Made by a program: the position numbers and the translations under genes. The notes beneath the pieces are model-generated. The model was not told where the DNA came from, ran no database searches, and saw nothing but the letters and a program-made list of their open reading frames with translations. Of a stretch of 64,000 nt of DNA, positions 2,442 to 49,085 are shown piece by piece. Each line of letters starts with the position of its first letter. Within the stretch, counting starts at the first letter, position 1. Location: positions 32,001-96,000 of IMG/VR virus record IMGVR_UViG_3300045988_175722; one strand, given 5' to 3'. The stretch is from a virus.

Positions 2442-2753
2442 ATGGCAAGATATACCCAATCTTATCAAAGTCTTCGCCAGTTCTGCGAGAAGTGGCAATG
2501 GATAGACCCACGCAGCGGGCAGCAGGTAACTGGCTATGTGCATCCGCAGACGGCGAGGAAGGTAGAACGCAAGCCGTTCTACATCAAGTTCCTCACCAAG
2601 ACGGGGCATGTAGATGAAGGCGAATGCGTCTGCCTGAAGGTAGATGTGCTGCGCCACCAGCGAAAAGTGCAGTTCGTCAACAGTAAGCAGATAAGAGTGG
2701 TGAATGACATCCTGGTATTAGAAGTAGATGGCACTAGGTTCATCACCCATTGA
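2442..2753 (+). CDS. hypothetical protein
   Basis: 103-aa co-oriented ORF with no recognisable family. Confidence 0.55.
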   Translation: MARYTQSYQSLRQFCEKWQWIDPRSGQQVTGYVHPQTARKVERKPFYIKFLTKTGHVDEGECVCLKVDVLRHQRKVQFVNSKQIRVVNDILVLEVDGTRFITH

Positions 2754-3012
2754 CAAGTCTTCATGTTTTTAGATTTAAATAAATTTTGTTTTTAAACTCT
2801 AAGTTGTTCATCTTTTAGGTGATCTTTTTAGGTGAATCAAAACTATTTCATAATGGTTATTACGATAGGCTTTCAGTGGAAAGCAAAAACGTGATAATAG
2901 TGTGTTGTTAAAGCAATGTGGGGGCATTTTACTCATTTCCCCTACACCTCCCCGGTGCGTGAGCATAGGGCGTTTTTTGATTAGAATATTCATTTAAAAC
3001 AAGATATTTATT

Positions 3013-3633
3013 ATGGTAGAAATTCCATTATTAATAAAAGGCCTCGCTCTCATCCTGGTGGTAGCAGGCATCGCAGTCCTTATCTTCAAGAGGCTTAAGA
3101 AGAGAAAGACGGGGAATGCGTTAAAAAACATAAGCTCCATCGCCGCTTTAATTGCGAAGTGGGAGCGTTCGGGCTTGCTTCATTGGCAGGTAAAAGGCAA
3201 GACTCTTTTGCTGGAACAGAGCCTCGCGGTCTCTGTGATGTCGCTGGGAGAAGAACTTTTCAAGAAGTTTCTCAATCTTCTGGCGCAGTTTAAGAATGCT
3301 GAACTGGTAGGTAATGCCTACGAGCAGCAGCGTCTAGACCTGGAGACGACAGCCGTGCGCAAGGCACAGGAACAGACCCAGGCCAAACTCACCGATATTG
3401 ATATTCAGCGCATTCGTCAGGATGCACGCAAGGATATGCAGCACATCGACATGAAGAGCATCATGGATGCCATTCATGAATTTGATATAATGATTATCCG
3501 CAGTAACGCCATCTCATCTGCCGATGCCACCCAGGAAGGTGGGCAGTTAGTAGCCATCGGTCATTTCGACGGCAAGAAGGTGGAAATGGCAATGTGGGAT
3601 GAAATCAAGCACGATTTAAATACAGAAAAATAA
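3013..3633 (+). CDS. membrane-anchored coiled-coil protein (hypothetical)
   Basis: N-terminal hydrophobic helix LLIKGLALILVVAGIAVLIF followed by a charged helical region. Confidence 0.6.
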   Translation: MVEIPLLIKGLALILVVAGIAVLIFKRLKKRKTGNALKNISSIAALIAKWERSGLLHWQVKGKTLLLEQSLAVSVMSLGEELFKKFLNLLAQFKNAELVGNAYEQQRLDLETTAVRKAQEQTQAKLTDIDIQRIRQDARKDMQHIDMKSIMDAIHEFDIMIIRSNAISSADATQEGGQLVAIGHFDGKKVEMAMWDEIKHDLNTEK

Positions 3634-21588: not shown

Positions 21589-22359
21589 TTAAAATAGGCT
21601 AGGCTGCGCCATTTCGAGCTGAATACGCTTGCAAGCCTTGTCGTAATATTCTTTGTTCAGCTCAAAGCCGATGAAGTTCCTCTTTTCTCTGATGCAGGCG
21701 ATTGCGGTAGTTCCGCTGCCCATGCAATTATCGAGAACGCACCCCCCCACATTAGTATAAGTACATATAAGATACTGGATAAGAGCTACTGGCTTTTGCG
21801 TAGGGTGGAAGGTATCGGCAGAATGTTCTTTATCAAAGCAGATAATGCTCTTTGGGAATTTTTCATCTGATACGATAGTAGGCACTTCTTTATGGTCTCC
21901 ATAACAGCCTCGCTTCAAACTATGCGAGCCATCTCCCCTTCGATGATTCCTTTGATGTGGCGCACATTTTACCATTTGAGGATTGTAGACAGGTTGTTTT
22001 CGATAAAATACAGCAATATCCTCATGTGAGCGCAGAGGCATCTTGTTGGCATTCAGAAAGCCTGTTACCCGTTGTTTGCTCCAAATAAGATTATATTTCC
22101 AGAGTTTCGGCTGCGACATCATAAGTTGTGCGGTAAACATACCTTGGCAGAAAAGGATAATGGCTGCATTGGGTTTGGTTATGCGCAGATATTCCTTCCA
22201 TAATGGCTCAAGCGGGATAATGCTATCCCAGCCACCGCCCTCACTCTTTTTATTGAGAACGCCATACGGCAAATCGCAGATAATGCAATCCACGCTTGCG
22301 TCCGGAATCTTTTTCATTCCTACCAGGCAATCCTCATTATAAATCTTATTTAATTCCAT
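21589..22359 (-). CDS. DNA methyltransferase, beta class (N6-adenine or N4-cytosine)
   Basis: Motif IV-like VDCIICDLPYG near the N-terminus. HPTQKP and motif I VLDNCMGSGTTAIA near the C-terminus. It contains an in-frame G7 tract (coding GG). Confidence 0.9.
   Translation of the reverse strand: MELNKIYNEDCLVGMKKIPDASVDCIICDLPYGVLNKKSEGGGWDSIIPLEPLWKEYLRITKPNAAIILFCQGMFTAQLMMSQPKLWKYNLIWSKQRVTGFLNANKMPLRSHEDIAVFYRKQPVYNPQMVKCAPHQRNHRRGDGSHSLKRGCYGDHKEVPTIVSDEKFPKSIICFDKEHSADTFHPTQKPVALIQYLICTYTNVGGCVLDNCMGSGTTAIACIREKRNFIGFELNKEYYDKACKRIQLEMAQPSLF
21742..21748. repeat. C7 homopolymer (G7 on the coding strand), in frame
   Basis: Inside beta-class MTase ORF 21589-22359, coding the GG just before motif I. 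Confidence 0.95.
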
Positions 22360-22379: not shown

Positions 22380-22977
22380 TCAATTAAACCATTTTAGAAT
22401 AGTTTCTCCTTTATATCCTTTTTCCCAGATAAACCAGGCATAGGCTTGAGCGCTACCAGCCATTGCATCGAAATCGCCATTGGCAGCACATTTCAGTCGT
22501 GAACTGCTTACCCATACTCTGCATGGAGGCTGTGTTCTAAACAGATGCCTTCTTCCTTTCCCTTCAAGAAAAGTAAGTTTTAGAAACATAGCAACCTTTC
22601 TTCCTTTCGGAATAATCTGCAAAGCCTTTTCCACGAACTCTAACGCAAATCGGTATGGTGGATTGGTAACAATATCTCCATTCCATTCTATGTTGTCGAT
22701 GGAAAGAAAATCTGCAACATCACCATAACCTCTATCTATCAAGTCACGGCTGACTACATCGTAGCCATGAGCCTTTAACACTTTGCTAATATGTCCTTCG
22801 CCGCAGGAAGGTTCCAAAATTACCCCCCCCCGTAAAATGCTCTATCTTACAGAGCCATTCGGTAGCTGCGGGTTCTGTGGCATAGTAGTCTTCTTTTTGG
22901 CGCTCACCATTTTTGTGATTGCTAGCGCCCAAAGTCTTAAACACGGCAGCCTTGCCGCCTACCCAGTCTTTTGCCAT
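22380..22977 (-). CDS. N6-adenine DNA methyltransferase, reading frame broken at a G9 tract (C9 on the plus strand)
   Basis: The two track ORFs (22786-22977 and 22380-22817) join as ...KIEHFTGGVILEPSCGEGHISK...DIVTNPPY... if the tract at 22823-22831 is 8 nt. Motif I (ILEPSCGEG) and motif IV (NPPY) are present. Confidence 0.8.
22823..22831. repeat. C9 homopolymer (G9 on the coding strand), breaks the frame
   Basis: Separates the two halves of the NPPY MTase. In frame at 8 nt. Confidence 0.95.
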
Positions 22978-29200: not shown

Positions 29201-32200
29201 AAAACTGCCGAAAAATAAATCAGGCTTGATTAGCGGTGAAAATTGGAAAGTTGATAATAAGGGTTTCGTTTACCGCCAGGGTTATGACGGCAGAAAGATT
29301 TCTCCCTCTTCCAGTGACCCGCAAATGGTATTCAAACTTCGTGATTTGCTTTCTGCGTCTCGCTGGTACACAAACGCTACGCATCGTAGAGGCAATAAAG
29401 AAAAGGAAATTGAGAAGGCTTATGCGAATTGGGTTCCAGAAGGATATACTGATTATCCGGAAGAAAGTCCTGGCACTCTTGATAATAATGCACCCGATCC
29501 TGATGCTATCGCTGCTGCGAAGCGGGAGGCACGTGAACAGAAGCAGGCGTTGCGTGACCAGCAGCGTTCCTGGCGTGATGAGCTGAAGCAGAAGCAGGAC
29601 GAGGCGAGTGCTATCATGGATAACGTTCGCAACTTCTATGAGCGACAAATTAACGAGAAGCTATCCCAGGCAGTAAGCCTCGGAAGGGATGAGACAGAGC
29701 AGAAATTCTATATAGAACCGATAAAGAGACGTATGAATGAAGCTCTTGCTCAGGTGCGCCTTGCTATCGCTGGTCAGGCTAACACCTGGGAGGAGTTCAA
29801 GAAGACGATGGATAATGATCTTGTTGAGAAGACCGATGAGACTGGCGTGAATCTTTCTCAAAATCTCCTCGCTTCCATCCAAAAGAATAACGTCGATGCC
29901 CTGCGTGAGAAGATGGCTCAGTTGGGTAATAGTCTGAACCGCTCGATGAACTCCATCACGTCTGAAATCTTTGCCAAGGCTACCAAGAATCAGCAGAATA
30001 ATATAACGCTGGAGGCTCAACAGGCAGAAGCTCGGCGAAAGATAGCCCGAGAGCACAACTATACTGGAGCCGTGCAGCAGAGCATGTACGATGATTTCAA
30101 TCAGATGGGCTTCGCTAACCCAACCGGTTTTGAGCTAGCGGATGAGGAACGCGCAGAAAAACGCAAGGAGCATATCATCGCCATGTACGAGCAGGCAAGA
30201 AAGCAAATTGCCAACCTTTATACAGTTGATGTCAGCAGTAAAGAGGGTAGGGGATTGTTGATGCAGATGCTCTTTGGTGATGATCCTTATGCACTGGGTG
30301 CCCGTATTCAGAATATGTTGGGCGATAATGCGGAGGACTGGCATGTGTTCTATAATAAACTCATTCAGTATTCTGATGAATATACCGAAGCTCAGAAGAA
30401 GACCTTCGACCAGGCAAAGAAGATTGCCGAGCAGATGTGGAAGGTGAACCAGCGCAATCTTGCCAATCAGGAAGCCCTTCGCAAGATGCAGCAGGAAAGT
30501 GCGCTCTTCGGCAAGCGAACTAATATGTGGTCGAACCTTGGACTGGGTAATCTCACCGCTGACCCAGAGGTGGAGCTGATGAAGATGAAGATGCAGATGG
30601 CAGAAGATTACTATGCCTTTGTATTCAAGAACTCAAAGAACAAGCAGCTCCTCGATGAAGCTGACAAGGCTCGTCAGGAGGCAGAACTCGCCTACGTCAA
30701 CCAAATGGCTACGGCGATGAGGAACCGCCTTTCTCAGATGCAGCAGCTCGTGCAGCCTATCGAAACCTTCGGTGCAGAAGTAGGCAAGGCATTTGCCGAA
30801 ATGCGCAACGATGCAAAAAGCGCACAGGAGAGCATCAAGAACGCCCTGAAGTCTATGCTCGAATCGTGGGGTAACATGGCACTCAACGACGTGAATACGC
30901 AGATGTGGAAGGCTATCAATGATGCTGGCGCCAAGCGAGCCAAGAAGAAAGCACAACCTGGTATTGATGCAGCGAGAGCCAACGCTGATGCCAATGCCGT
31001 GAAGGAAGATTTCTCTCATCTCGGCACAAAGGCGAATCCGATGTATGTGCGACTGGTAGATGAGGGTGCATCTTATCTTACTCAGCAGCCGCAGTCTAGT
31101 TTCGAGAATATGAGTTCACGGCAGCAGCCTATCGGTTGGAATCCTGATGGCTCGCCTATCATGCCTGGCAAATCTCCTGTTGCGCCTGATAACACTCCCG
31201 TCGTGCCTTATGCGCCTACCGATACCAAGCAGCAGGGCACGCAAGAGCAGCAAAACGGTGCTCCTCATGCGTGGGCACATCGCAACCGAGACAATGCTAA
31301 TGCGTTCTACCAGGATGCAGCCACGCAAACGGGTGCAGCCGCAGCCGATGTTATCTCGGGCGGTAGCTCTTTCAATGATGCCGCAGCCGGTATCGCTGGT
31401 TCCTCCGTTGGAGGAATGATGAACACCGAGTTCAAAACTGGCGGCAAATCCAAGGAGGATAAGGAAAAAGCCGAGCAGTTGAAGAAGGAAAAGAAGCACC
31501 AGAAGGAGCTGAGTAAAGAGGTAAAGAAGGGCAACAAGGAACGTGAAAAGGTAACTACCCAGGGTGTTAAGAACATCACAGATGTAACCGCTGCCGGAAA
31601 CAAGGAGCAGAACGAGGGTACTAAGGTGACTTTGAATGCAGGTATGCAGATGACGGAAACGGCCCTTAATACCAACCTTGCAAAGACAAAGGAGAACAAC
31701 CAGGAAGTAACCGAGTCAGATGCCAGCCGCACGCAGGCTGAAATGACCTTCTCTATCGCTGGTGCGATGGCGAAGTGTTTCGAGTTCCTGGGTCCTATCG
31801 CTGGTCCTATTGCAGCCGCAGGCGTAATGGCCACCCTTATGGGCTTACTCCAGTGGGCACTCAACTCTGCCTTCAGCAGTGGCAAGAAAAAGAACACATC
31901 TTCTTCCACCAATACCAAGCTCACCTCCGGCATGCTTACCTACGATAGTGGTAACGTGCAGGATTTGAAGCCTTTCGTGGCCGATAATGGCGAGGTGTAT
32001 TGGGCAAAAGAGGATGATGGAAAGCAGATGCAGGGCGTGAAGATGCTTACCACTCCTACCGCCACCACCGTAAACGGGCAGCCGTCTTTGGTAGCCGAGA
32101 AGGGACCGGAAATCGTCATTGGTAGAGAAACTACCCATGCCATGATGATGAATAACCCTGGTTTGCTGAAAGCCCTTGTGAATTTCGACCGTAACTACTC

Positions 32201-33366: not shown

Positions 33367-34485
33367 ATGTTTGAGGAGATATGTTCCGTCTATCGGGATG
33401 CGAAGGATGCACTCGGAAGATATGTCGATATGGAGACGGGCGAGTGCATCACGCAGATGTCTATCCGTGAGTTCTGCCTGACGGACAGATGGAAGCCGTA
33501 TGTAGAGAAGCTGAGAGCCATGAGGCAACAGTATGGCAGTGCAGCTAAGAAGATGCCGGAATACGTAGATACCAAGAAGATGCTTCCTGGTGCCACGCTG
33601 AGCGGTCTCTTCGCTACCTACGAGGACAATAGTCTTACTCATCCAGGCCAGCGGGTGATGGTTTCCCGAAGAGAAAGCCACCTTCAACGGCATACAGGAT
33701 GGTTGGCAATAGATATTGACCTGCAAGACAACCAAGGTATAGCCGATTTCGAGAATATCCGCAGGGTATTGGCATTTCGCCCCGAGGTAGCCCTGCTGAT
33801 GCGTTCCTGTTCCGGAACGGGATTGTTCGGATTGGTTCGCTTGGCTTACCCTGACCATCACAAAGAGCAGTTCAAGGCATTACTGCAGGAGTATGCTGCC
33901 CTGGGCATTATGCTTGATGGCTCTTGTGGAAATATCGGTCGTGTGCGCTTCGCCTCATGGGATGATCCGCAGCATATATATATTAATGAACGTGCGATAC
34001 CATACACCAGACTACCCGATAATGTGCCTACGCCGATGCCCGTGATGCAGTATGGCAACACGTTTTTCAGTGGCAGCCATCCGACAGGTGCCCGCTTTGG
34101 CGGAAACTATTCGCATGGTGGATATAGGTGTGACACTCCCGAGATCACCTATCACAAAGCGCTGCGCCTTGTTGAGAAGATAGAGGCACAAGGCATTGAT
34201 ATTTGCGCAGGCAAGGATGCTAATAGTGGCTATCTGGGTTGGGTGAAATGCGGCATGTCGCTCTATCACGTGGATCGCGTGGCAGGCTATGACCTGTGGC
34301 GAAGAGTTTCCCGCTTCCGTCCTGCTGATTCCACCTGCGGCCACAACGAGATGGATTTTCGCAAGCGATGGAATCAGTTTGCTAATTACAACAAAATCTC
34401 TGAGGCAACTTTCTTCGACTACTGCAAGCGGTCGGGCATCATCCTCACCAAGGAAGACTGGAAAGAGATATACCAGAATACATAA
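33367..34485 (+). CDS. primase-like protein (BT4734/VirE-type N-terminal domain with PriCT-like C-terminal region)
   Basis: WLAIDIDL...LLMRSCSGTGLFGLVRL...GNIGRVRFASWD resembles the Bacteroides-type primase/VirE N-terminal domain. It is adjacent to the iteron-rich region. Confidence 0.6.
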   Translation: MFEEICSVYRDAKDALGRYVDMETGECITQMSIREFCLTDRWKPYVEKLRAMRQQYGSAAKKMPEYVDTKKMLPGATLSGLFATYEDNSLTHPGQRVMVSRRESHLQRHTGWLAIDIDLQDNQGIADFENIRRVLAFRPEVALLMRSCSGTGLFGLVRLAYPDHHKEQFKALLQEYAALGIMLDGSCGNIGRVRFASWDDPQHIYINERAIPYTRLPDNVPTPMPVMQYGNTFFSGSHPTGARFGGNYSHGGYRCDTPEITYHKALRLVEKIEAQGIDICAGKDANSGYLGWVKCGMSLYHVDRVAGYDLWRRVSRFRPADSTCGHNEMDFRKRWNQFANYNKISEATFFDYCKRSGIILTKEDWKEIYQNT

Positions 34486-34562: not shown

Positions 34563-34849
34563 ATGGCAAAAAGAAAAGTAGAAATCCCTAAAGGGTCATG
34601 GCTTGACCAGAAAGGTCAACGTTGGGTAAAAGTAGTGTTCGATGTAATGTCCGGATTCGGGGGGGCAAAAAGTTCCTTCGTCAAATCACAATGACGTTCC
34701 CGGCAAATCTCGATATGGCTTTAGGCAAATACTTAATAGATATGGGCGATATGGATGATTTCAGAGACAGAATAAATCATCAATACCCATCATTGGAACA
34801 CCTTAAAAATCTCACCTTTATCCCTACGGGAGACAAGGTTTTGAGATAG
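34563..34849 (+). CDS. hypothetical protein, reading frame broken at a G7 tract
   Basis: The ATG at 34563 reads MAKRKVEIPKGSWLDQKGQRWVKVVFDVMSGFGG and then stops. With 8 G at 34659-34665 it continues as ...GKKFLRQITMTFPANLDM... (track ORF 34622-34849), giving 95 aa. Confidence 0.5.
34659..34665. repeat. G7 homopolymer, breaks the frame
   Basis: Inside ORF 34563-34849. In frame at 8 nt. Confidence 0.95.
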
Positions 34850-44186: not shown

Positions 44187-45293
44187 ATGGAAGCAAAGAT
44201 AAACCTCACCATCCCGAAAAGCTGGAATCAATGCACCCCCACCCAGCTAGAGCAGATTGCCCTCATCATGCTAGAGCAGATAGAGAAATCCAAGGTAGAC
44301 CGCTATCACCCCTTCGATATGCAGAAGGTGAAGATAGCTGTCTTCTTTCTCTTTGCCGGGATAAGCATCAACGCCTATCCCGACCCTCGCCAGCCTATCA
44401 ATGAGCAGCACTACCTGGTAAGCATAGAGCCGCAGAAGAAGAGCCTCCTAAAGAAGCTCTTCTCCCTCTGCGCCTCCGTTCCCAGCGATTCCATCGCTGG
44501 TCCCCAGTCTTGCAGCCACTTCCCTCTCTATCTTTGGCAGCTCAACTATTGGCTTTCCCCGAAAGCCAAAACCAACGATAAAACCTCCCCCGAGTATATC
44601 TCCCAAGGCGCAGGTCTCCTCGATTGGCTGGATGCGGATAGCGGCAATTTTCTCACCCTTTTTCCCTATCCATCCATCAAGCAGAAATCCAAGTGGTACC
44701 ATCGCAGCAAAGCCTTCCAGGGTCCGCACCCAGACCTCGATGGTTTCTCCTGGCAGCAGTACCGCTTCGCCAGCGATATGATGCAAACCTACACCAAGTT
44801 AAACAATAACCTGGTTAAGATGAAGAAGATGGATAAATTCACCGAGGCGCAGTTGCATCAGCAAGCCGAGAGTGTGCGTAGTGCAAAAAGCATGTTCTTA
44901 GCCGTCATCTTTAACACCACTACGAATTACATCGACTCTACCACTGGCATAAAGAAATACGATTTCCACTATGAGGCAAAACAGCTCACTGCCCATGCCA
45001 AGTATTTCGTCGATTTCTCCGAAGCCCAGTGGCAAGTAGTTTTATTCTGGTGGACGGGCATCATGCACACCCTGGCTCATCGCTACCCTCATGTGTTCAA
45101 GGTGCAGAAGGTAAACAACAGTAAGCCACAAACTCCGATGGAAATCTACACCGCTACCACCGCCACGATGCAGAAGTATGCCGGCTTAACAGAAGATCAG
45201 ATCAACACCCAATCCTATTCCTTGGTTCTAGAACACTTAGAAAGGTTATCGAAAGAGAATGAGGAAATGGAAAAGATGAGGAGAAGCAAATGA
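44187..45293 (+). CDS. hypothetical protein
   Basis: 368-aa ORF starting 1 nt after the endolysin stop. It carries an in-frame hairpin motif copy (...ASVPSDSIAGP...). Confidence 0.6.
   Translation: MEAKINLTIPKSWNQCTPTQLEQIALIMLEQIEKSKVDRYHPFDMQKVKIAVFFLFAGISINAYPDPRQPINEQHYLVSIEPQKKSLLKKLFSLCASVPSDSIAGPQSCSHFPLYLWQLNYWLSPKAKTNDKTSPEYISQGAGLLDWLDADSGNFLTLFPYPSIKQKSKWYHRSKAFQGPHPDLDGFSWQQYRFASDMMQTYTKLNNNLVKMKKMDKFTEAQLHQQAESVRSAKSMFLAVIFNTTTNYIDSTTGIKKYDFHYEAKQLTAHAKYFVDFSEAQWQVVLFWWTGIMHTLAHRYPHVFKVQKVNNSKPQTPMEIYTATTATMQKYAGLTEDQINTQSYSLVLEHLERLSKENEEMEKMRRSK
44470..44503 (+). repeat. 32-nt hairpin motif, copy 11 (intragenic)
   Basis: GCGCCTCCGTTCCCAGCGATTCCATCGCTGGTCC inside ORF 44187-45293, in frame. 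Confidence 0.85.
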
Positions 45294-45436
45294 TAAAGAT
45301 AGATTATCATTTTCCGAATACGGGGGGGGTATTCACTCAATGTACAAAGGATTTCAATAATGGCCCCTTATGGAATTTGAGCCGTTGCGTCAAGGCAAGC
45401 GTTCTCGATACAGGCGTAATGCTAGAATATGAATAA
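45290..45436 (+). CDS. TRD-like minigene M0 (48 aa)
   Basis: ATGA overlap with the previous stop. MIKIDYHFPNTGGVFTQC...VLDTGVMLEYE, with a G8 tract in frame and the LEYE-stop tail shared with the downstream array. Confidence 0.45.
   Translation: MIKIDYHFPNTGGVFTQCTKDFNNGPLWNLSRCVKASVLDTGVMLEYE
45322..45329. repeat. G8 homopolymer, in frame
   Basis: In minigene M0, context AATAC-G8. Confidence 0.95.
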
Positions 45437-45557
45437 CCATCGCTTTTACCAATACCCACGAGGCGAGAATATGGGCGGTATTCTAGATACATCACTCTGC
45501 CTTACCATCACTATTAATTCGTAGGAACAGAATGTGTTTCTAATAGAGGAATTATAA
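45429..45557 (+). pseudogene. TRD-like minigene M0b, interrupted by an in-frame TAG
   Basis: MNNHRFYQYPRGENMGGILDTSLCLTITINS-TAG-EQNVFLIEEL. The ATG is embedded in the EYE-stop of M0. Confidence 0.3.
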
Positions 45558-45563
45558 AGATTT

Positions 45564-45872
45564 ATGAGTTATAGTACATTAAAAATAGAGAAGAATAAAT
45601 TCAGAGAACACTCTGTATTTTTATCCCGTTCAACCGTAAGTGATACGGTTGTAATCAAGTGTGGTTCAGAAAGCGTGTGTCTTGAGCAAGACGAATTTAA
45701 AGCGCTGGCACATCTCATGTGCTATGATTTCTATACACGAGGTATGATCGAGAAAGCTCAAGAACATAGCCGGAATGATGTTCGTCCATACGATATATAT
45801 TCTACTACCGATATAGAAGGTTACGACGAGAAGATTAATTGGGATTTGGATGTAGAAAATAACAACAAATAG
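45564..45872 (+). CDS. hypothetical protein
   Basis: 102-aa ORF between the minigenes and the MTase core. Confidence 0.5.
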   Translation: MSYSTLKIEKNKFREHSVFLSRSTVSDTVVIKCGSESVCLEQDEFKALAHLMCYDFYTRGMIEKAQEHSRNDVRPYDIYSTTDIEGYDEKINWDLDVENNNK

Positions 45873-45932
45873 CATTTCCAAAGAACAAGAGAATTCATTG
45901 AGTATGATTAAAGATTTATAGAGCAAAACAAA

Positions 45933-47234
45933 ATGATAACAAAATTCAATTTTAAGGATAAGACCATCAAGTCTTATGCCATCCGAAAGCTGACACCTTT
46001 CGAGTGTTTCCGACTGATGGGTGTTCGTGATAATGTGATACAAACCATGCAGAGCACCAATGCCCAGGCAGCCGAACGCATCGCCAACTACAAGGGCAAG
46101 GGCAAACCTGAAGATATGGCAGTATCAGCCAGTCAGCAATACAAGCAGGCGGGTAACTCCATCGTGGTAGATGTGCTTGCAGCCATCTATCAGCAACTCT
46201 GGTACCAGAAAGAACCAAAGCGTGAGGCACAGACCTCCCTCTTTGCCGATTTCTTCCCAGAAGACCAACTCCCTACCTATCCGGTAGATAAGAACGATGA
46301 TGAGAAACTTATTCTTACCACCTTCTCCGGTTACGACTCGCAGTTGATGGCAGCCGATGTGCTCGCCCAGCAGCATCCTGATTTCCGCTGGACGTGCGTA
46401 GGCTGGAGCGATATAGATAAGTATGCCTGTCAGATGCACGACCTTATCTTTCCGCAGTTTTCCGACAAAGCCTTGGGCGATATAACCAAAATCGACTGGC
46501 AACAGGTAAAATCTAATACGGGGGGGCAAGAAATTGACCTCTTTACCTATTCTTCACCTTGTCAGGATATATCGCAAGCCGGCAAGCAGATGGGTCTGAA
46601 GGAAGGTTCCGATACCCGCTCTGCATTATTGTGGCGAGTAGTCGATGCCGTAGAGGTATTGCGGCCTAAATACCTGCTCCAAGAGAACGTAGCAGCCCTG
46701 GTAAGCAAGAAGTTTATGCCCGATTTTCAGAAGTGGCTTGATAAGCTCTCTTCTCTTGGCTACGTAAGCCGATGGGCACGCCTCAATGCCAAAGACTATG
46801 GTGTTCCGCAGAACCGCGACCGAGTTTTCTGCCTCTCAATGAGAAAAGATGTAGCCTTCGATTACCAGTTTCCCGACCCTATTCCGCTGAAGAGAAAGTT
46901 GGAAGATGTGTTGCAGGAAGAAGTAGATACAAGGTTCTTCTTGAAAGATGAATCCGTCAGCAAGTTCCTCCAGGCAAACGATAAAGACACCTGTGTCTTC
47001 CATCAGTTTGAGATAGAGCCGAGCCACGAGAATGCCATGGCATTGAAAGCCATCCTTACCCTTTTCGTAGAGCAGTATGATTGCTGGAACCGCAAGCCTA
47101 AGAGAATGCAGGAGCTACTTGTTTCTTCTCACGAGGATATTATCATGCCATTATTCAATGATTGGAAAGAGAACGGCAAGTTCCAAAATCCAAAGTTAGA
47201 TAGTTTGTACCATCAGTTTTTGGAGAAGAAATGA
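45933..47234 (+). CDS. DNA (cytosine-5) methyltransferase core, circularly permuted (motifs IX-X precede I-VIII), with no recognisable TRD
   Basis: Motif order is IRKLTPFECFRLMG (IX), YKQAGNSIVVDV (X), TFSGYDS (I), YSSPCQDIS (IV), LLQENV (VI), GVPQNRDRVF (VIII). A G7 tract at 46520-46526 is in frame. Confidence 0.9.
   Translation: MITKFNFKDKTIKSYAIRKLTPFECFRLMGVRDNVIQTMQSTNAQAAERIANYKGKGKPEDMAVSASQQYKQAGNSIVVDVLAAIYQQLWYQKEPKREAQTSLFADFFPEDQLPTYPVDKNDDEKLILTTFSGYDSQLMAADVLAQQHPDFRWTCVGWSDIDKYACQMHDLIFPQFSDKALGDITKIDWQQVKSNTGGQEIDLFTYSSPCQDISQAGKQMGLKEGSDTRSALLWRVVDAVEVLRPKYLLQENVAALVSKKFMPDFQKWLDKLSSLGYVSRWARLNAKDYGVPQNRDRVFCLSMRKDVAFDYQFPDPIPLKRKLEDVLQEEVDTRFFLKDESVSKFLQANDKDTCVFHQFEIEPSHENAMALKAILTLFVEQYDCWNRKPKRMQELLVSSHEDIIMPLFNDWKENGKFQNPKLDSLYHQFLEKK
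46520..46526. repeat. G7 homopolymer, in frame
   Basis: In the C5-MTase core just before motif IV, context AATAC-G7. Confidence 0.95.
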
Positions 47235-47420
47235 TTTGCAGTTTAACCCATGTTGCGAAGCCTTCGCCTATGATTAGGGGGGGGGTATCAGCAGGTAGTA
47301 AACGTAACAGACGGAGAAAGCGCAGCCACCTTAACAACTCGCTATGAGTCGATAGGTCCTACCAACATTTTAACGCTTGCGCATTACCCTATGACAGTAG
47401 TGTTATATGAATACGAATAA
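47231..47420 (+). CDS. TRD-like minigene T1 (frame broken at G9; intact at G8)
   Basis: ATGA overlap with the core stop. With 8 G it reads MICSLTHVAKPSPMIRGGYQQVVNVTDGESAATLTTRYESIGPTNILTLAHYPMTVVLYEYE. Confidence 0.45.
47277..47285. repeat. G9 homopolymer, breaks the frame
   Basis: In minigene T1. In frame at 8 nt. Confidence 0.95.
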
Positions 47421-47558
47421 TACGATAGACAAAATAGGCAACATTTACTTTAATGAATGGAAGCCCGGTTTTGATGGTAATATCTGTGGCGTGAAAGGTA
47501 TATACCCTACCATTACTCTATCCAACAATACGGGGGGGTACTGTTAGAGTATGCTTAA
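47407..47558 (+). CDS. TRD-like minigene T2 (frame broken at G7; intact at G8)
   Basis: ...GVKGIYPTITLSNNTGG followed by VLLEYA-stop if the tract has 8 G. As sequenced it stops after GGYC. Confidence 0.45.
47532..47538. repeat. G7 homopolymer, breaks the frame
   Basis: In minigene T2, context AATAC-G7. In frame at 8 nt. Confidence 0.95.
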
Positions 47559-47718
47559 AAAGAACGCACGTCTGGAGCGTATGTATCAGCGCGGTTTCCG
47601 TCCACATCACGCCATGTGGATCGATACCTATAATAAGCAATATGGCAAAGATATTATCTATACTGTTTTAGCTGGTATCAGTAGTAGAAACCATTATTAC
47701 GTAGCAGTAGAACTATGA
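47551..47718 (+). CDS. TRD-like minigene T3 (55 aa, intact)
   Basis: MLKKNARLERMYQRGF...IIYTVLAGISSRNHYYVAVEL. Start and stop overlap the neighbouring minigenes. Confidence 0.4.
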   Translation: MLKKNARLERMYQRGFRPHHAMWIDTYNKQYGKDIIYTVLAGISSRNHYYVAVEL

Positions 47719-47863
47719 ATAGTAATCGCCCGATCATCCTCGGCTCTTATAGCCCATCCCAAAACGGCATTATCGTTCACCCTAAAGGTATCGCCCTATG
47801 CCTTTGTGGGGGGGCAAAGGGCATGATGTAGATAAACCGAAAATATTATTAGAGTATGAATAA
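47715..47863 (+). CDS. TRD-like minigene T4 (frame broken at G7; intact at G8)
   Basis: ...IVHPKGIALCLCGGGKGHDVDKPKILLEYE with 8 G. Confidence 0.45.
47808..47814. repeat. G7 homopolymer, breaks the frame
   Basis: In minigene T4. In frame at 8 nt. Confidence 0.95.
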
Positions 47864-48007
47864 GGTTATTCCTTTCGTAAAACGATTTAAGGAGCTATGC
47901 CCACGATTAGATGGTTACTCTACAGCCTTGTCATCAAGGTACGATGGATGGGGGGGCTGTACGACAACCACGGGCAGCATACTATGTTATTGTTAGTATA
48001 TGATTAA
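47856..48007 (+). CDS. TRD-like minigene T5 (frame broken at G7; intact at G8)
   Basis: MNKVIPFVKRFKELCPRLDGYSTALSSRYDGWGGLYDNHGQHTMLLLVYD with 8 G. Confidence 0.4.
47950..47956. repeat. G7 homopolymer, breaks the frame
   Basis: In minigene T5. In frame at 8 nt. Confidence 0.95.
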
Positions 48008-48144
48008 ATTGATAACAATCAATACCCCCCCCCATAATCTGTGGTGCTATCACTGCTCATTATTTTAAGGATGGGGTATCGAATATCCTTCCAAATACAA
48101 ACTCGCAGATAAAGGCTGCGGCAATATTAGCAGAGTATGAATAA
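48000..48144 (+). CDS. TRD-like minigene T6 (frame broken at C9; intact at C8)
   Basis: MIKLITINTPPIICGAITAHYFKDGVSNILPNTNSQIKAAAILAEYE with 8 C. Confidence 0.4.
48025..48033. repeat. C9 homopolymer, breaks the frame
   Basis: In minigene T6, context AATAC-C9. In frame at 8 nt. Confidence 0.95.
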
Positions 48145-48238
48145 GGTTATAATAGATAAAGGTAGCATTCCTCCTTCTGAAGAGAAAGAGGATGATTCTA
48201 ATGATATGCCGCCATTCGTATTGATAGAATATGATTAA
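48137..48238 (+). CDS. minigene T7 (33 aa, intact; tail motif only)
   Basis: MNKVIIDKGSIPPSEEKEDDSNDMPPFVLIEYD. It shares its first 20 nt with T5 and has the xLIEYD tail but no TRD-like core. Confidence 0.35.
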   Translation: MNKVIIDKGSIPPSEEKEDDSNDMPPFVLIEYD

Positions 48239-48407
48239 GATATTAGCCATTCACGAGGCAAGAACAGAGCACGCCAAGGAAGTACGCAAGCAGACTGGTA
48301 CCAACGATTATCGGGATAAAGCCGTCTTCTTCCGTGATAGTCCTTTGATGCAGTGCATCGGTACTTTCTCCACAAAGGATAATCTTCTTGCCTTCAGATA
48401 TGAATAA
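48231..48407 (+). CDS. TRD-like minigene T8 (58 aa, intact)
   Basis: IHEARTEHAKEVRKQTGTNDYRDKAVFFRDSPLMQCIGTFSTKDNLLAFRYE, of the RTExAK...TKDNLL flavour seen in many C5-MTase variable regions. Confidence 0.5.
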   Translation: MIKILAIHEARTEHAKEVRKQTGTNDYRDKAVFFRDSPLMQCIGTFSTKDNLLAFRYE

Positions 48408-48416
48408 AGAAAAGTT

Positions 48417-48581
48417 ATGAACGAAATACATCCGATAGTAGTAGGCTTGCTGAATACGCCTCCCTTTGACAAGCGCTTCGCCCAGATAAGGCGAGTGTTC
48501 GCTATCCAAGGTCTAGCGCCTACTTGCGATACTTGTGGGGGGGGCGGTACTCAGCCCAAGATACTGGTGGAGTATGATTAG
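48417..48581 (+). CDS. TRD-like minigene T9 (54 aa, intact, G8 in frame)
   Basis: ...RRVFAIQGLAPTCDTCGGGGTQPKILVEYD, a close match to the RxY..G..PTL....GGG...I pattern found before motif IX in C5-MTases. Confidence 0.5.
   Translation: MNEIHPIVVGLLNTPPFDKRFAQIRRVFAIQGLAPTCDTCGGGGTQPKILVEYD
48537..48544. repeat. G8 homopolymer, in frame
   Basis: In minigene T9, coding GGGG. Confidence 0.95.
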
Positions 48582-48756
48582 GCAAGCCATCATTACCCAC
48601 TATCGAACCGAAGAAGCGAAGGCATATCGCAAGATACACGGCGACAGAGGCGGTTGCCGTTATCAGGATAAGTATCATCGCCCAAGTCCCTACCCCTGGA
48701 GTAACTGCATTTCCACCGTAACAAAAGATAATCTTTTATGGCAACAATACGAATAA
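48574..48756 (+). CDS. TRD-like minigene T10 (60 aa, intact)
   Basis: MIRQAIITHYRTEEAKAYRKIHGDRGGCRYQDKYHRPSPYPWSNCISTVTKDNLLWQQYE (C-terminal part of track ORF 48535-48756). Confidence 0.5.
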   Translation: MIRQAIITHYRTEEAKAYRKIHGDRGGCRYQDKYHRPSPYPWSNCISTVTKDNLLWQQYE

Positions 48757-48896
48757 GAACCTGCGCAAGCAGAGGCAGAGCCGATGGTGATTGGTACTAC
48801 AACCCTCACTCCCAAAGGTTAGAAATTGGGGGAAGCATCAGTAATGCCATCTCCTCCATCGCTAAGGATTTTATGATTATCATTGAACACCGCTAG
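48738..48896 (+). CDS. TRD-like minigene T11 (52 aa, intact)
   Basis: MATIRIRTCASRGRADGDWYYNPHSQRLEIGGSISNAISSIAKDFMIIIEHR. It overlaps T10 by 19 nt, and its stop lies in the first iteron of palindrome cluster X. Confidence 0.4.
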   Translation: MATIRIRTCASRGRADGDWYYNPHSQRLEIGGSISNAISSIAKDFMIIIEHR

Positions 48897-49085
48897 GCGC
48901 TCGGCGGATTTGAAATCCGCCGTTAAAAAATGTCCTAACCTTTTTAGGCTCTGCGGATTTGAAATCCGCAGCAAGCAAGATTGTATCAAAGAATAGGGGG
49001 ATTACAGATCCCCCAGTTTAATAGGTCGAACCTTTTTTGACGGTGGATTTCAAATCCGCCGGAACGCCTAACGGAAGACTTTGTC
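48891..49085. repeat. composite palindrome cluster X (four GC-stem palindromes flanked by one iteron on each side)
   Basis: CGCTAGGCGCTC, GGCGGATTTGAAATCCGCC, TGCGGATTTGAAATCCGCA, GGGGGATTACAGATCCCCC, GGTGGATTTCAAATCCGCC, GGAACGCCTAACGGAAGAC. It is the reverse complement of the core of cluster Y. Confidence 0.85.

Follow-up and report, generated by a model that had tools for sequence, protein, structure and literature searches.

A circularly permuted C5-methyltransferase core flanked by separate target-recognition-like minigenes with poly-G/C tracts in a human gut phage

We analyzed a 64,000-nucleotide (nt) stretch of viral DNA (IMG/VR record IMGVR_UViG_3300045988_175722, positions 32,001 to 96,000; hereafter, the window), which belongs to a human gut phage genome of about 104 kb. 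Here, we describe a 3.6-kb locus in which a circularly permuted C5-cytosine methyltransferase (C5-MTase) core is flanked by 13 ATG-to-stop minigenes, or units, all on one strand, with 11 of them downstream of the core (47231-48896) and 2 upstream (45290-45557). A first-pass annotation had noticed this layout and read the minigenes as target-recognition domains (TRDs) split into separate cistrons that complement one catalytic core. The observation was confirmed as real and conserved, and its interpretation was partly supported. Eight of the 13 units are homologous to TRD modules that are fused within ordinary multispecific C5-MTases, the unit families are under purifying selection, and both units and core contain poly-G/C contingency tracts that the annotation had missed. 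Taken together, these features of the sequence suggest that the locus is probably a multispecific methylase split into a catalytic subunit and trans-acting TRD subunits, each of them phase-varying.

The window sequence is identical to a portion of a 104,194-bp scaffold from a human gut metagenome (ENA ERZ28576153, sample SAMEA4545385). The phage is tailed, with genes that include those for a 2091-amino-acid (aa) tape-measure protein, a head protease, and an endolysin. INPHARED lacked a near relative of the phage, and a megablast search with the locus returned 0 matches. At least 133 relatives of the window methylase were found in IMG/VR, mainly on contigs of 50-110 kb; the labels of metagenome-assembled genomes (MAGs) disagreed on the host, pointing twice to Prevotella and also to Firmicutes bins. 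For comparison, we used 81 related loci, annotated with a library of unit families, 80 IMG/VR relatives of the core (core identity of 67-94%), and ten further related genomes from other studies (L095-L104), giving a total of about 90 independent assemblies. A sister sample, SAMEA4545384, comes from the same study and the same strain as SAMEA4545385, and its sequences are labelled L092 and L094. The unit families were defined by coverage-filtered clustering, which replaced single-linkage clustering because the latter, applied to frame segments, had lumped together units that are unrelated.

The permuted core and its flanking units

The core carries, from the N- to the C-terminus, the strings IRKLTPFECFRLMG, YKQAGNSIVVDV, TFSGYDS, SSPCQDIS, LLQENV, and GVPQNRDRVF, which were read directly and represent motifs in the order IX, X, I, IV, VI, and VIII. 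All the conserved C5-MTase motifs I, IV (PCQ), VI (ENV), VIII (QxRxR), IX, and X are present in it, motif I in the variant form FSGYDS. In agreement, the Pfam profile PF00145 matched the core at 1.7e-50 in two stretches and in permuted order, with residues 8-89 aligned to profile positions 269-322 and residues 154-350 to positions 23-217, and the NCBIfam profile dcm (TIGR00675) matched at 3.6e-47. The motif strings and the two-stretch match bore out the permuted order that the first-pass annotation had proposed. The N-terminus ahead of motif IX reads MITKFNFKDKTIKSY. Past motif VIII, the core holds the first part of the variable region, followed by residues 351-433 (about 80 residues past profile position 217, about 75 variable among relatives), for which no match was obtained, in line with the earlier remark that this region does not look like a TRD. 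No unit-family region was found inside the core with hidden Markov models (HMMs), and the polypeptide contains no TRD between motifs VIII and IX. In 75 of the 80 relatives, the core has a length of 432-442 aa and its stop precedes the array, and none of the ten genomes L095-L104 contained a core-TRD fusion. One natural core-T4 fusion was found, P0211 (482 aa), a single cluster from 4 contigs, where a frameshift near the core end is followed by 22 out-of-frame residues and then T4.

The core and the 13 units are listed below. ON refers to the in-frame length of a homopolymer tract, OFF to an out-of-frame length, and dN/dS to the ratio of nonsynonymous to synonymous substitution rates.

45290-45436, plus strand: M0a, 48 aa, intact; G8 at 45322-45329, in frame
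45429-45557, plus strand: M0b, inactivated by TAG at 45522-45524 (TGG in relatives); degenerate tail IEEL
45933-47234, plus strand: circularly permuted C5-MTase catalytic core, 433 aa; in-frame G7 tract at 46520-46526; PF00145, TIGR00675
47231-47420, plus strand: T1, 62 aa if ON; OFF here, G9 at 47277-47285
47407-47558, plus strand: T2, about 50 aa if ON; OFF here, G7 at 47532-47538
47551-47718, plus strand: T3, 55 aa, intact; tail VAVEL; dN/dS 0.135
47715-47863, plus strand: T4, 49 aa if ON; OFF here, G7 at 47808-47814; dN/dS 0.088
47856-48007, plus strand: T5, 50 aa if ON; OFF here, G7 at 47950-47956; dN/dS 0.12
48000-48144, plus strand: T6, 48 aa if ON; OFF here, C9 at 48025-48033
48137-48238, plus strand: T7, 33 aa, intact; acidic, MNKVIIDKGSIPPSEEKEDDSNDMPPFVLIEYD; canonical start and FVLIEYD tail, no TRD body
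48231-48407, plus strand: T8, 58 aa, intact; RTExAK...TKDNLL flavour
48417-48581, plus strand: T9, 54 aa, intact; G8 at 48537-48544, in frame
48574-48756, plus strand: T10, 60 aa, intact; RTEEAK...TVTKDNLL flavour; dN/dS 0.118
48738-48896, plus strand: T11, 52 aa, intact; atypical tail IIIEHR; dN/dS 0.06

As had been described, the stop codon of the core (47232-47234) overlaps the ATG of T1 (ATGA), with 11 units downstream and two upstream; the ATG of M0a likewise overlaps the stop of an upstream 368-aa open reading frame (ORF) through ATGA. Only M0a, T3, T7, T8, T9, T10, and T11 are intact in the window, the others being disrupted by a frameshift (T1, T2, T4, T5, and T6) or a nonsense codon (M0b). 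Several of the ORFs of 33-62 codons reported earlier, namely those at T1, T2, T4, T5, and T6, turned out to be half-units, each interrupted where a homopolymer causes a 1-nt frameshift. Reassignment of a stop codon was considered and rejected: the large ORFs all read with code 11, and the TAG of M0b replaces a conserved TGG. The two sequence flavours noted among the peptides are both present. T6 belongs to a superfamily with T1, F4, F12, F48, and F96. T7 was found in 18 loci, with a dN/dS of 0.17, and could act as a blank that occupies the docking site. The exact T10 protein is listed in 346 blocks of an assembly collection, and its exact sequence occurs on contigs from several studies.

The eight units with homology to TRD modules of ordinary multispecific C5-MTases are M0a, M0b, T2, T4, and T8-T11. 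A tblastn search with T9 found 82 phage records, the match lying nearly always within an annotated C5-MTase gene, and these included the multispecific enzymes of Bacillus phages H2, rho11s, phi3T, and SPbeta. T9 showed 41.7% identity over 48 aa with residues 310-353 of the H2 enzyme, which form the middle of three tandem TRDs and have the same PKI-VEY end strand. When the T9-family profile was run against 1.84 billion representatives, 1574 proteins were found at E<=1e-3; many had 400-1176 aa and 2-6 tandem matches, and six of those tested were PF00145-positive. HMMs of M0a, M0b, T2, T4, T8, T10, and T11, and of the families F2, F69, and F70 from relatives, matched modules of the long multi-TRD proteins. 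The M0a/F10 model recognized a module beside T9-type TRDs in PF00145 enzymes (P0389 residues 319-351, E 1e-12, and P0495), the M0b model residues 357-388 of P0397 (E 1.9e-8), and the T8 model the PF00145 protein P0485, while the T10 and T11 models matched 13 and 27 multi-TRD proteins, respectively (T10, e.g., P0397 residues 428-482, E 7.9e-9; T11, best E 3.7e-13). With tblastn, M0b found 17 records, mostly with the match inside an annotated C5-MTase gene; T1, T6, T8, and T10 gave no methylase matches among phage and plasmid records. In hhalign comparisons, T2 and T4 aligned with T9 at probabilities of 78% and 85%, and T8 with T10 at 93.6%. P0397 is a conventional 627-aa C5-MTase that contains adjacent T9-, M0b-, T11-, and T10-type modules between motifs VIII and IX. 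Since the same modules are found fused in ordinary multispecific enzymes, those of the window are such modules placed in separate cistrons. T1, T3, T5, T6, and T7 are called units on the basis of position, size, tail, and junction grammar only, and are best regarded as putative members of the set.

The earlier statement that most peptides end in EY(E/D)-stop was confirmed. A tail of this type also ends the fused tandem TRDs (H2: ...GGGHREPKIAVEY); it is, judging from this likeness, the ancestral last strand of the TRD module and not a special invention for docking. The first-pass annotation had proposed it as a possible docking element, and it may still mediate binding.

The units could also be made and serve another role, for instance by acting as decoys for, or inhibiting, the methylases or restriction enzymes of the host, or by regulating the core. 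Purifying selection acting on separate cistrons is compatible with this, as are the conserved tail of T7, which has no TRD body, and the failure of AlphaFold to predict an autonomous fold for T9. However, the core lacks exactly the part that the units resemble, the modules are homologous to working TRDs of multispecific enzymes, and the units adjoin a permuted core in all 81 loci and at three further places from one unit look-up (P0286). We therefore consider such a role unlikely.

Two side observations concern relatives and metagenomic proteins. The F2 family, absent from the window, lies upstream of the core in relatives (e.g., L002 to L023); its members, of 105-109 aa (...RIRQATEQGYTDCP...RRSRTVGGGKLVNALTAAS...FVFVEL), form the largest unit family, and their G-run splits them in several loci. 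The F2 HMM matched modules in six multi-TRD proteins (best E 1e-15), and the two that were scanned, P0412 and P0474, were PF00145-positive. Besides, some metagenomic proteins consist of 2-6 tandem TRD modules only (P0372, P0376, P0403, P0433, P0378, and P0366). P0372 has motifs IX-X without I-VIII, and P0376, P0403, and P0433 are without any methylase motif. Detached TRD arrays may thus occur beyond this phage group, and some of these proteins could be fragments.

Junctions and homopolymer tracts

The junction sequence TATGAWTAR occurs 10 times in the 3.6-kb locus versus 2 times in the other 60 kb of the window, and the same grammar recurs in the 81 loci, which speaks against chance and supports the stereotyped junctions described at first. 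Across these loci, we recognized about 25 unit families, with a median of 11 and a maximum of 18 units per locus, placed on both sides of the core and in 71 different orders. An ATG stood at the expected place in 661 of 672 near-full copies (98%). Neighbouring units overlapped mainly by 8 nt (n = 216, of the ATGAWTAA type), and also by 19 nt (n = 29) or 4 nt (n = 22); at least six kinds of junction were found (-19, -14, -8, -4, and gaps of +1 to +20), and all three stop codons were used. Every unit family was under purifying selection in its own frame, with a dN/dS of 0.04-0.27 for most and 0.9-3.1 in shifted frames, among loci whose cores differ by 30%. Independent gene callers have also called stand-alone unit proteins of 49-63 aa, in hundreds of clusters without a Pfam domain or name, and no family for any unit was found in NCBIfam or PHROGs. 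About 90 assemblies retain the units as separate cistrons under purifying selection, which shows that the stops are no artefacts. The claim that the TRDs are split into separate cistrons was thus upheld, and the comparison of relatives that had been proposed along with it revealed that gain, loss, and shuffling of cassettes at the junctions are pervasive.

This mosaicism is what a silent cassette store would be expected to display, that is, units that are not translated and are moved by recombination or gene conversion to an expression site, where they are fused to a catalytic gene. The stereotyped junctions could act as microhomology for such transfers, and P0211 provides one natural core-T4 fusion. 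Nevertheless, an expression site was found in none of the about 90 assemblies, where the core nearly always ends before any TRD (75/80) and is never fused to one in L095-L104; P0211, with its 22 out-of-frame residues and its single cluster, represents a frameshift read-through. Silent cassettes would need neither an ATG in 98% of copies nor an in-frame stop at each boundary. As for shufflons or invertons, no inverted repeats flank the units, the only strong ones in the array being the terminal hairpins. A silent store is accordingly improbable.

Another possibility is that ribosomal frameshifting, hopping, or transcriptional slippage bridges the junctions and tracts, generating one SPR-like multi-TRD enzyme or various fusions. 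The next unit mostly lies at a fixed +1 offset, given by the 8-nt overlap, OFF units retain an open downstream frame, and G/C runs of 7-9 nt can support transcriptional slippage. The mechanism of slippage is treated in a review (PMC5009743). The diversity of overlaps and of stop codons argues against recoding, and neither a slippery heptamer nor matched take-off and landing codons are present at GAGTATGAWTAA. In addition, the core stop lies in a different context (GAGAAGAAATGA), the conserved ATGs of the units would be needless, and no Rfam element was detected at E<=0.1. Such bridging is hence unlikely, and separate translation of the units remains the preferred reading.

Eight of the 12 G/C homopolymer runs of at least 7 nt in the window lie in the locus, and among the 81 loci the density of such runs was 0.546 per kb inside the locus versus 0.020 outside. 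T1, T2, T4, T5, and T6 are each broken by a 1-nt frameshift at the run, and a run of 8 would give a full unit with the canonical tail; the in-frame length is 8 in units and 7 in the core. Elsewhere in the window, GGG accounts for 4.9% of the glycine codons, and GGG-GGG was found in 6 of 9 Gly-Gly pairs in the locus versus 0 of 51 in the rest of the window, so that codon choice accounts for the runs. Where an orthologous tract is interrupted (GGAGGGGG, GGTGGGGG), it invariably measures 8 nt and is in frame, as in the T4 relatives with an interrupted tract, whereas pure runs vary from 6 to 10 nt (6-9 for M0a among relatives). Of 52 frame-split unit copies, 41 break at a run.

The two samples of the same strain provided the most stringent test, a direct comparison of tract states. 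Over an overlap of about 13 kb, they had 0 substitutions, and the tracts changed from SAMEA4545385 to SAMEA4545384 as follows: T1, 9 to 8; T2, 7 to 8; T4, 7 to 8; and T9, 8 to 9. These differences place the T1, T2, T4, and T9 tracts of the two samples in opposite ON/OFF states: in L092, T1 with G8 is an intact 62-aa ORF and T4 with G8 is ON, and in L094, T9 with G9 is OFF. T2 is still disrupted in the sister sample despite its G8, because a 17-nt deletion at 47457-47473 (L092), between the short direct repeats AATGG...GATGG, also shifts the frame. The G8 of M0a and the G7 of the core have the same length in both samples. The core tract varied among L095-L104, with G7 and an intact gene in five of the ten, G6 in one, and G8 in four; the G6 and G8 genes are truncated at 221 or 269 aa (5/10 genomes). 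Therefore, a coding homopolymer sets the reading frame and differs in length among otherwise identical genomes, as expected of a contingency locus, and tract slippage appears to be far faster than point mutation. With these tracts, the variable specificity that the first-pass annotation had imagined becomes a concrete mechanism, supported by sequence.

The broken units, the nonsense codon in M0b, the vestigial unit tail at 45873-45921, and the cores broken in five of ten related genomes might alternatively indicate a decaying remnant, a former multi-TRD methylase gene that is breaking up, its stops and frameshifts being damage. Yet every unit family remains under purifying selection across cores 30% apart, the frameshifts cluster at runs with selected codon usage, tract states reverse between samples of one strain, and about 90 assemblies, drawn from many studies, share the same stable architecture. 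Decay is largely refuted by the data on selection and reversal and is very unlikely. Least probable of all is that the stops or tract lengths are errors of sequencing or assembly. Homopolymers are error-prone, and the SAMEA4545384 assembly breaks inside the array; on the other hand, the junction stops recur in independent assemblies, interrupted tracts are invariant, variants of ±2 nt exist, and the M0a and core tracts agree between the sister assemblies.

G/C runs were also observed elsewhere in the window. A methylase-like gene of the NPPY type, of about 200 aa (22380-22977, minus strand), is split into 22786-22977 and 22380-22817 at a G9 (C9 at 22823-22831), and an intact 198-aa homologue lies in L090 at 2619-3215; it represents a second case of a methylase gene whose frame is broken at poly-G. 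An N6/N4 DNA methylase gene (21589-22359, minus strand; PF01555, 4.3e-31) has an in-frame G7 (C7 at 21742-21748) that codes for NVGGC. Together with the locus, methyltransferase-related genes hold 11 of the 12 G/C runs of at least 7 nt in the window. In addition, a frameshift at a G7 (34659-34665) divides an ORF of about 95 aa (34563-34849), which lies downstream of a primase-like gene (33367-34485; PF08800/PF08707).

A probable split methylase, its weak points, and known counterparts

If the locus is a split multispecific methylase, it could work as follows. The N-terminus of the core, with motif IX, and its C-terminus, past motif VIII and a short helical extension, would both lie at the site usually taken by the TRD. 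Each minigene would yield one TRD module of 33-63 aa, through translation of a polycistronic message in which stop and start codons overlap, and the peptide would dock between the two ends of the core through its first and last beta-strands (...IVVG... and ...PKILVEY). The docked peptide would then direct methylation at one target, and the set of peptides present would define the 5-methylcytosine (m5C) sites on the phage DNA. Slippage at the tracts would flip single specificities, and the whole enzyme, ON and OFF, generating phasotypes. Were the TRDs fused into one enzyme, a frameshift in any of them would ruin motifs IX-X as well; splitting would thus make each specificity an independent contingency gene and a cassette that recombines freely at the junctions. 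The benefit may be bet-hedging across hosts, in which shielding from the Type II restriction of a host is weighed against vulnerability to methylation-dependent (Type IV) restriction. The locus may have arisen when a multi-TRD gene was duplicated in tandem and the outer parts were then lost, which would leave TRDs, IX-X-I-VIII, and TRDs, i.e., the layout observed. Assembly from such parts appears feasible in view of the two-polypeptide enzymes M.AquI and M.EcoHK31I and of fragment complementation (PMC3404938). Whether the outcome is a combinatorial methylome, heritable but reversible, is in our view evenly balanced; it would comprise one core and a free library of TRDs of about 50 aa with their own poly-G switches, a master switch in the core, 2^n phasotypes, and cassette swaps with relatives.

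Several points weigh against this explanation. Translation of the units, their binding to the core, and the specificity that they would confer are predictions from sequence, as is the activity of the core, whose motif I reads FSGYDS and not FxGxG. The view of the minigenes as TRDs was substantiated by homology for eight of the 13; T1, T5, T6, and T7 gave no methylase match by tblastn and/or with HMMs against the multi-TRD proteins, and T3 gave one weak HMM match, P0402, so that its homology is marginal. The profile and structure searches that had been proposed gave a mixed answer as well: the unit HMMs matched multi-TRD enzymes, but PDB-sequence profile searches with T8/T10, T4/T9, and a 108-aa unit detected no methylase, and Pfam gave no signal either. 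The Pfam profile, which does not model TRDs, added no score for a unit placed ahead of motif IX, with 33-34 bits for chimeras of a unit and motifs IX/X, 33.2 bits without the unit, and 32.5 bits with a shuffled unit. AlphaFold2 models had a mean predicted local distance difference test score (pLDDT) of 53.8 for the P0211 fusion (18 close homologues) and 56.8 for T9 alone (99 homologues), too low for a fold search or for judging docking. A deeper alignment with non-permuted methylases was dropped, since MAFFT put their motif X onto the T4 segment; short T4 homologues were misaligned onto motif IV. Tract lengths were read from consensus assemblies, and homopolymer lengths in short-read assemblies can be miscalled. 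Finally, the shifted frame of an OFF unit ends tens of nt before the next ATG, indicating that strict termination-reinitiation cannot be the sole start route of the downstream units.

The multispecific C5-MTases of Bacillus phages (SPR, phi3T, rho11s, H2, and SPbeta; Trautner laboratory) resemble the locus in that one catalytic framework is combined with tandem TRDs of about 40-60 aa; the window holds 13 such modules in tandem. With a middle TRD of the H2 and rho11s enzymes, T9 shares 40-42% identity and also the PKI-VEY end. Those enzymes are also phage-borne, with a presumed anti-restriction role. However, their TRDs are fused between motifs VIII and IX, with all the catalytic motifs and TRDs in one polypeptide, whereas here a stop and an ATG stand at each boundary, the modules are their own cistrons with frameshift-prone homopolymers, and the core is permuted. 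M.BssHII is a naturally circularly permuted C5-MTase that keeps its TRD at the C-terminus of the same chain. The window core likewise has motifs IX-X ahead of I-VIII in one chain, but it ends before any TRD. Permuted C5-MTases have also been engineered (PMC5944983).

In M.AquI, the chain is cut within the variable region and the small chain carries motifs IX-X. The small chain of M.EcoHK31I, of about 60 aa, carries motif IX. Both motifs are in the core of our locus, and none is in the units. M.AquI and M.EcoHK31I are natural C5-MTases formed from separately translated chains (PMC3404938). Each has a single fixed specificity, whereas the small chains here would be TRD-only, with up to 18 alternatives per genome. 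The closest non-permuted relative found, with 44% identity, comes from a rabbit-gut MAG (L090, 4905-6061) and consists of two consecutive ORFs, one with motifs I-VIII (247 aa) and the next with a TRD and IX-X (130 aa), a layout due either to a split of the AquI type or to a frameshift.

With known contingency loci, the array shares intragenic G/C homopolymers whose length changes switch frames and generate population heterogeneity. In phasevarions, with their phase-variable Mod and Type I genes, it is a methyltransferase gene that undergoes switching. In the cases known so far, the switch acts on an entire enzyme or on a receptor-binding protein, whereas here up to seven tracts in one operon (seven in the window) would control single specificities and also the enzyme itself, and the carrier is a gut-bacterial phage. 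Poly-G tracts have been described in Campylobacter phages (Sorensen et al. 2021, as cited in PMC12823448). The HsdS specificity subunits of Type I restriction-modification systems, varied by shufflons or invertons (PMC4948785, PMC7672463), offer a functional analogy only, namely, recognition on a separate, exchangeable, and variable subunit. The proteins and the methylase class are unrelated, and HsdS varies by site-specific inversion and not by homopolymer slippage.

Each ingredient has been described by itself, namely, arrays of TRDs in multispecific enzymes, C5-MTases that are permuted or split, and contingency tracts of poly-G, and their combination is new; literature searches turned up no earlier account of detached TRD subunits or of a phage C5-MTase that is phase-variable. 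If the reading as a split, phase-varying methylase is correct, the locus would provide the first case of a C5-methyltransferase whose specificity subunits are detachable, and the first of a methyltransferase phasevarion carried by a phage. It would represent a new counter-defence in very widespread human gut phages, a stochastic and reversible choice among many methylation specificities. To our knowledge, how one catalytic framework takes many unrelated TRDs has been unsettled since the domain swaps of the Trautner era, and TRDs available as independent peptides of about 50 aa may make this question directly testable. The modules are also a possible toolkit of small, exchangeable specificity elements for targeted m5C. 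For annotation, they call for caution, as the small proteins predicted by gene callers already fill hundreds of clusters, all of which lack a name.

Other features of the locus

Four further features accompany the core and units.

45564-45872, plus strand: ORF X, 102 aa, conserved accessory gene, not TRD-like
45873-45921, plus strand: tail remnant (HFQRTREFIEYD-stop) of a unit of the F12/T1 type; contains an ATG mini-ORF, MIKDL-stop
48400-48420, plus strand: 6-codon mini-ORF, MNKEKL-stop, bridging T8 and T9
48899-49061, no strand assigned: three copies of the palindrome GCGGATTTGAAATCCGC (hairpins), at the array end

ORF X had no match in Pfam, PHROG, or NCBIfam; it was found in many relatives, on either side of the core, with a dN/dS of 0.12. 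The vestigial junction reported just before the core was verified and corresponds to the remnant at 45873-45921. In relatives, a comparable ...AHFPRTGVMIEYK-stop lies immediately upstream of the core. The mini-ORF between T8 and T9 has the usual junction ATG as its start codon and a TGA that overlaps the ATG of T9; it looks like a unit of which only the start escaped deletion. A scan of the array for sigma-70 promoter and terminator consensus sequences gave counts not above those of shuffled sequences. The three GCGGATTTGAAATCCGC copies lie within 160 nt, and the outer two also form a 32-nt inverted repeat; the hairpins probably mark the end of the transcript, and the cluster looks like a compound terminator or a protein-binding site.

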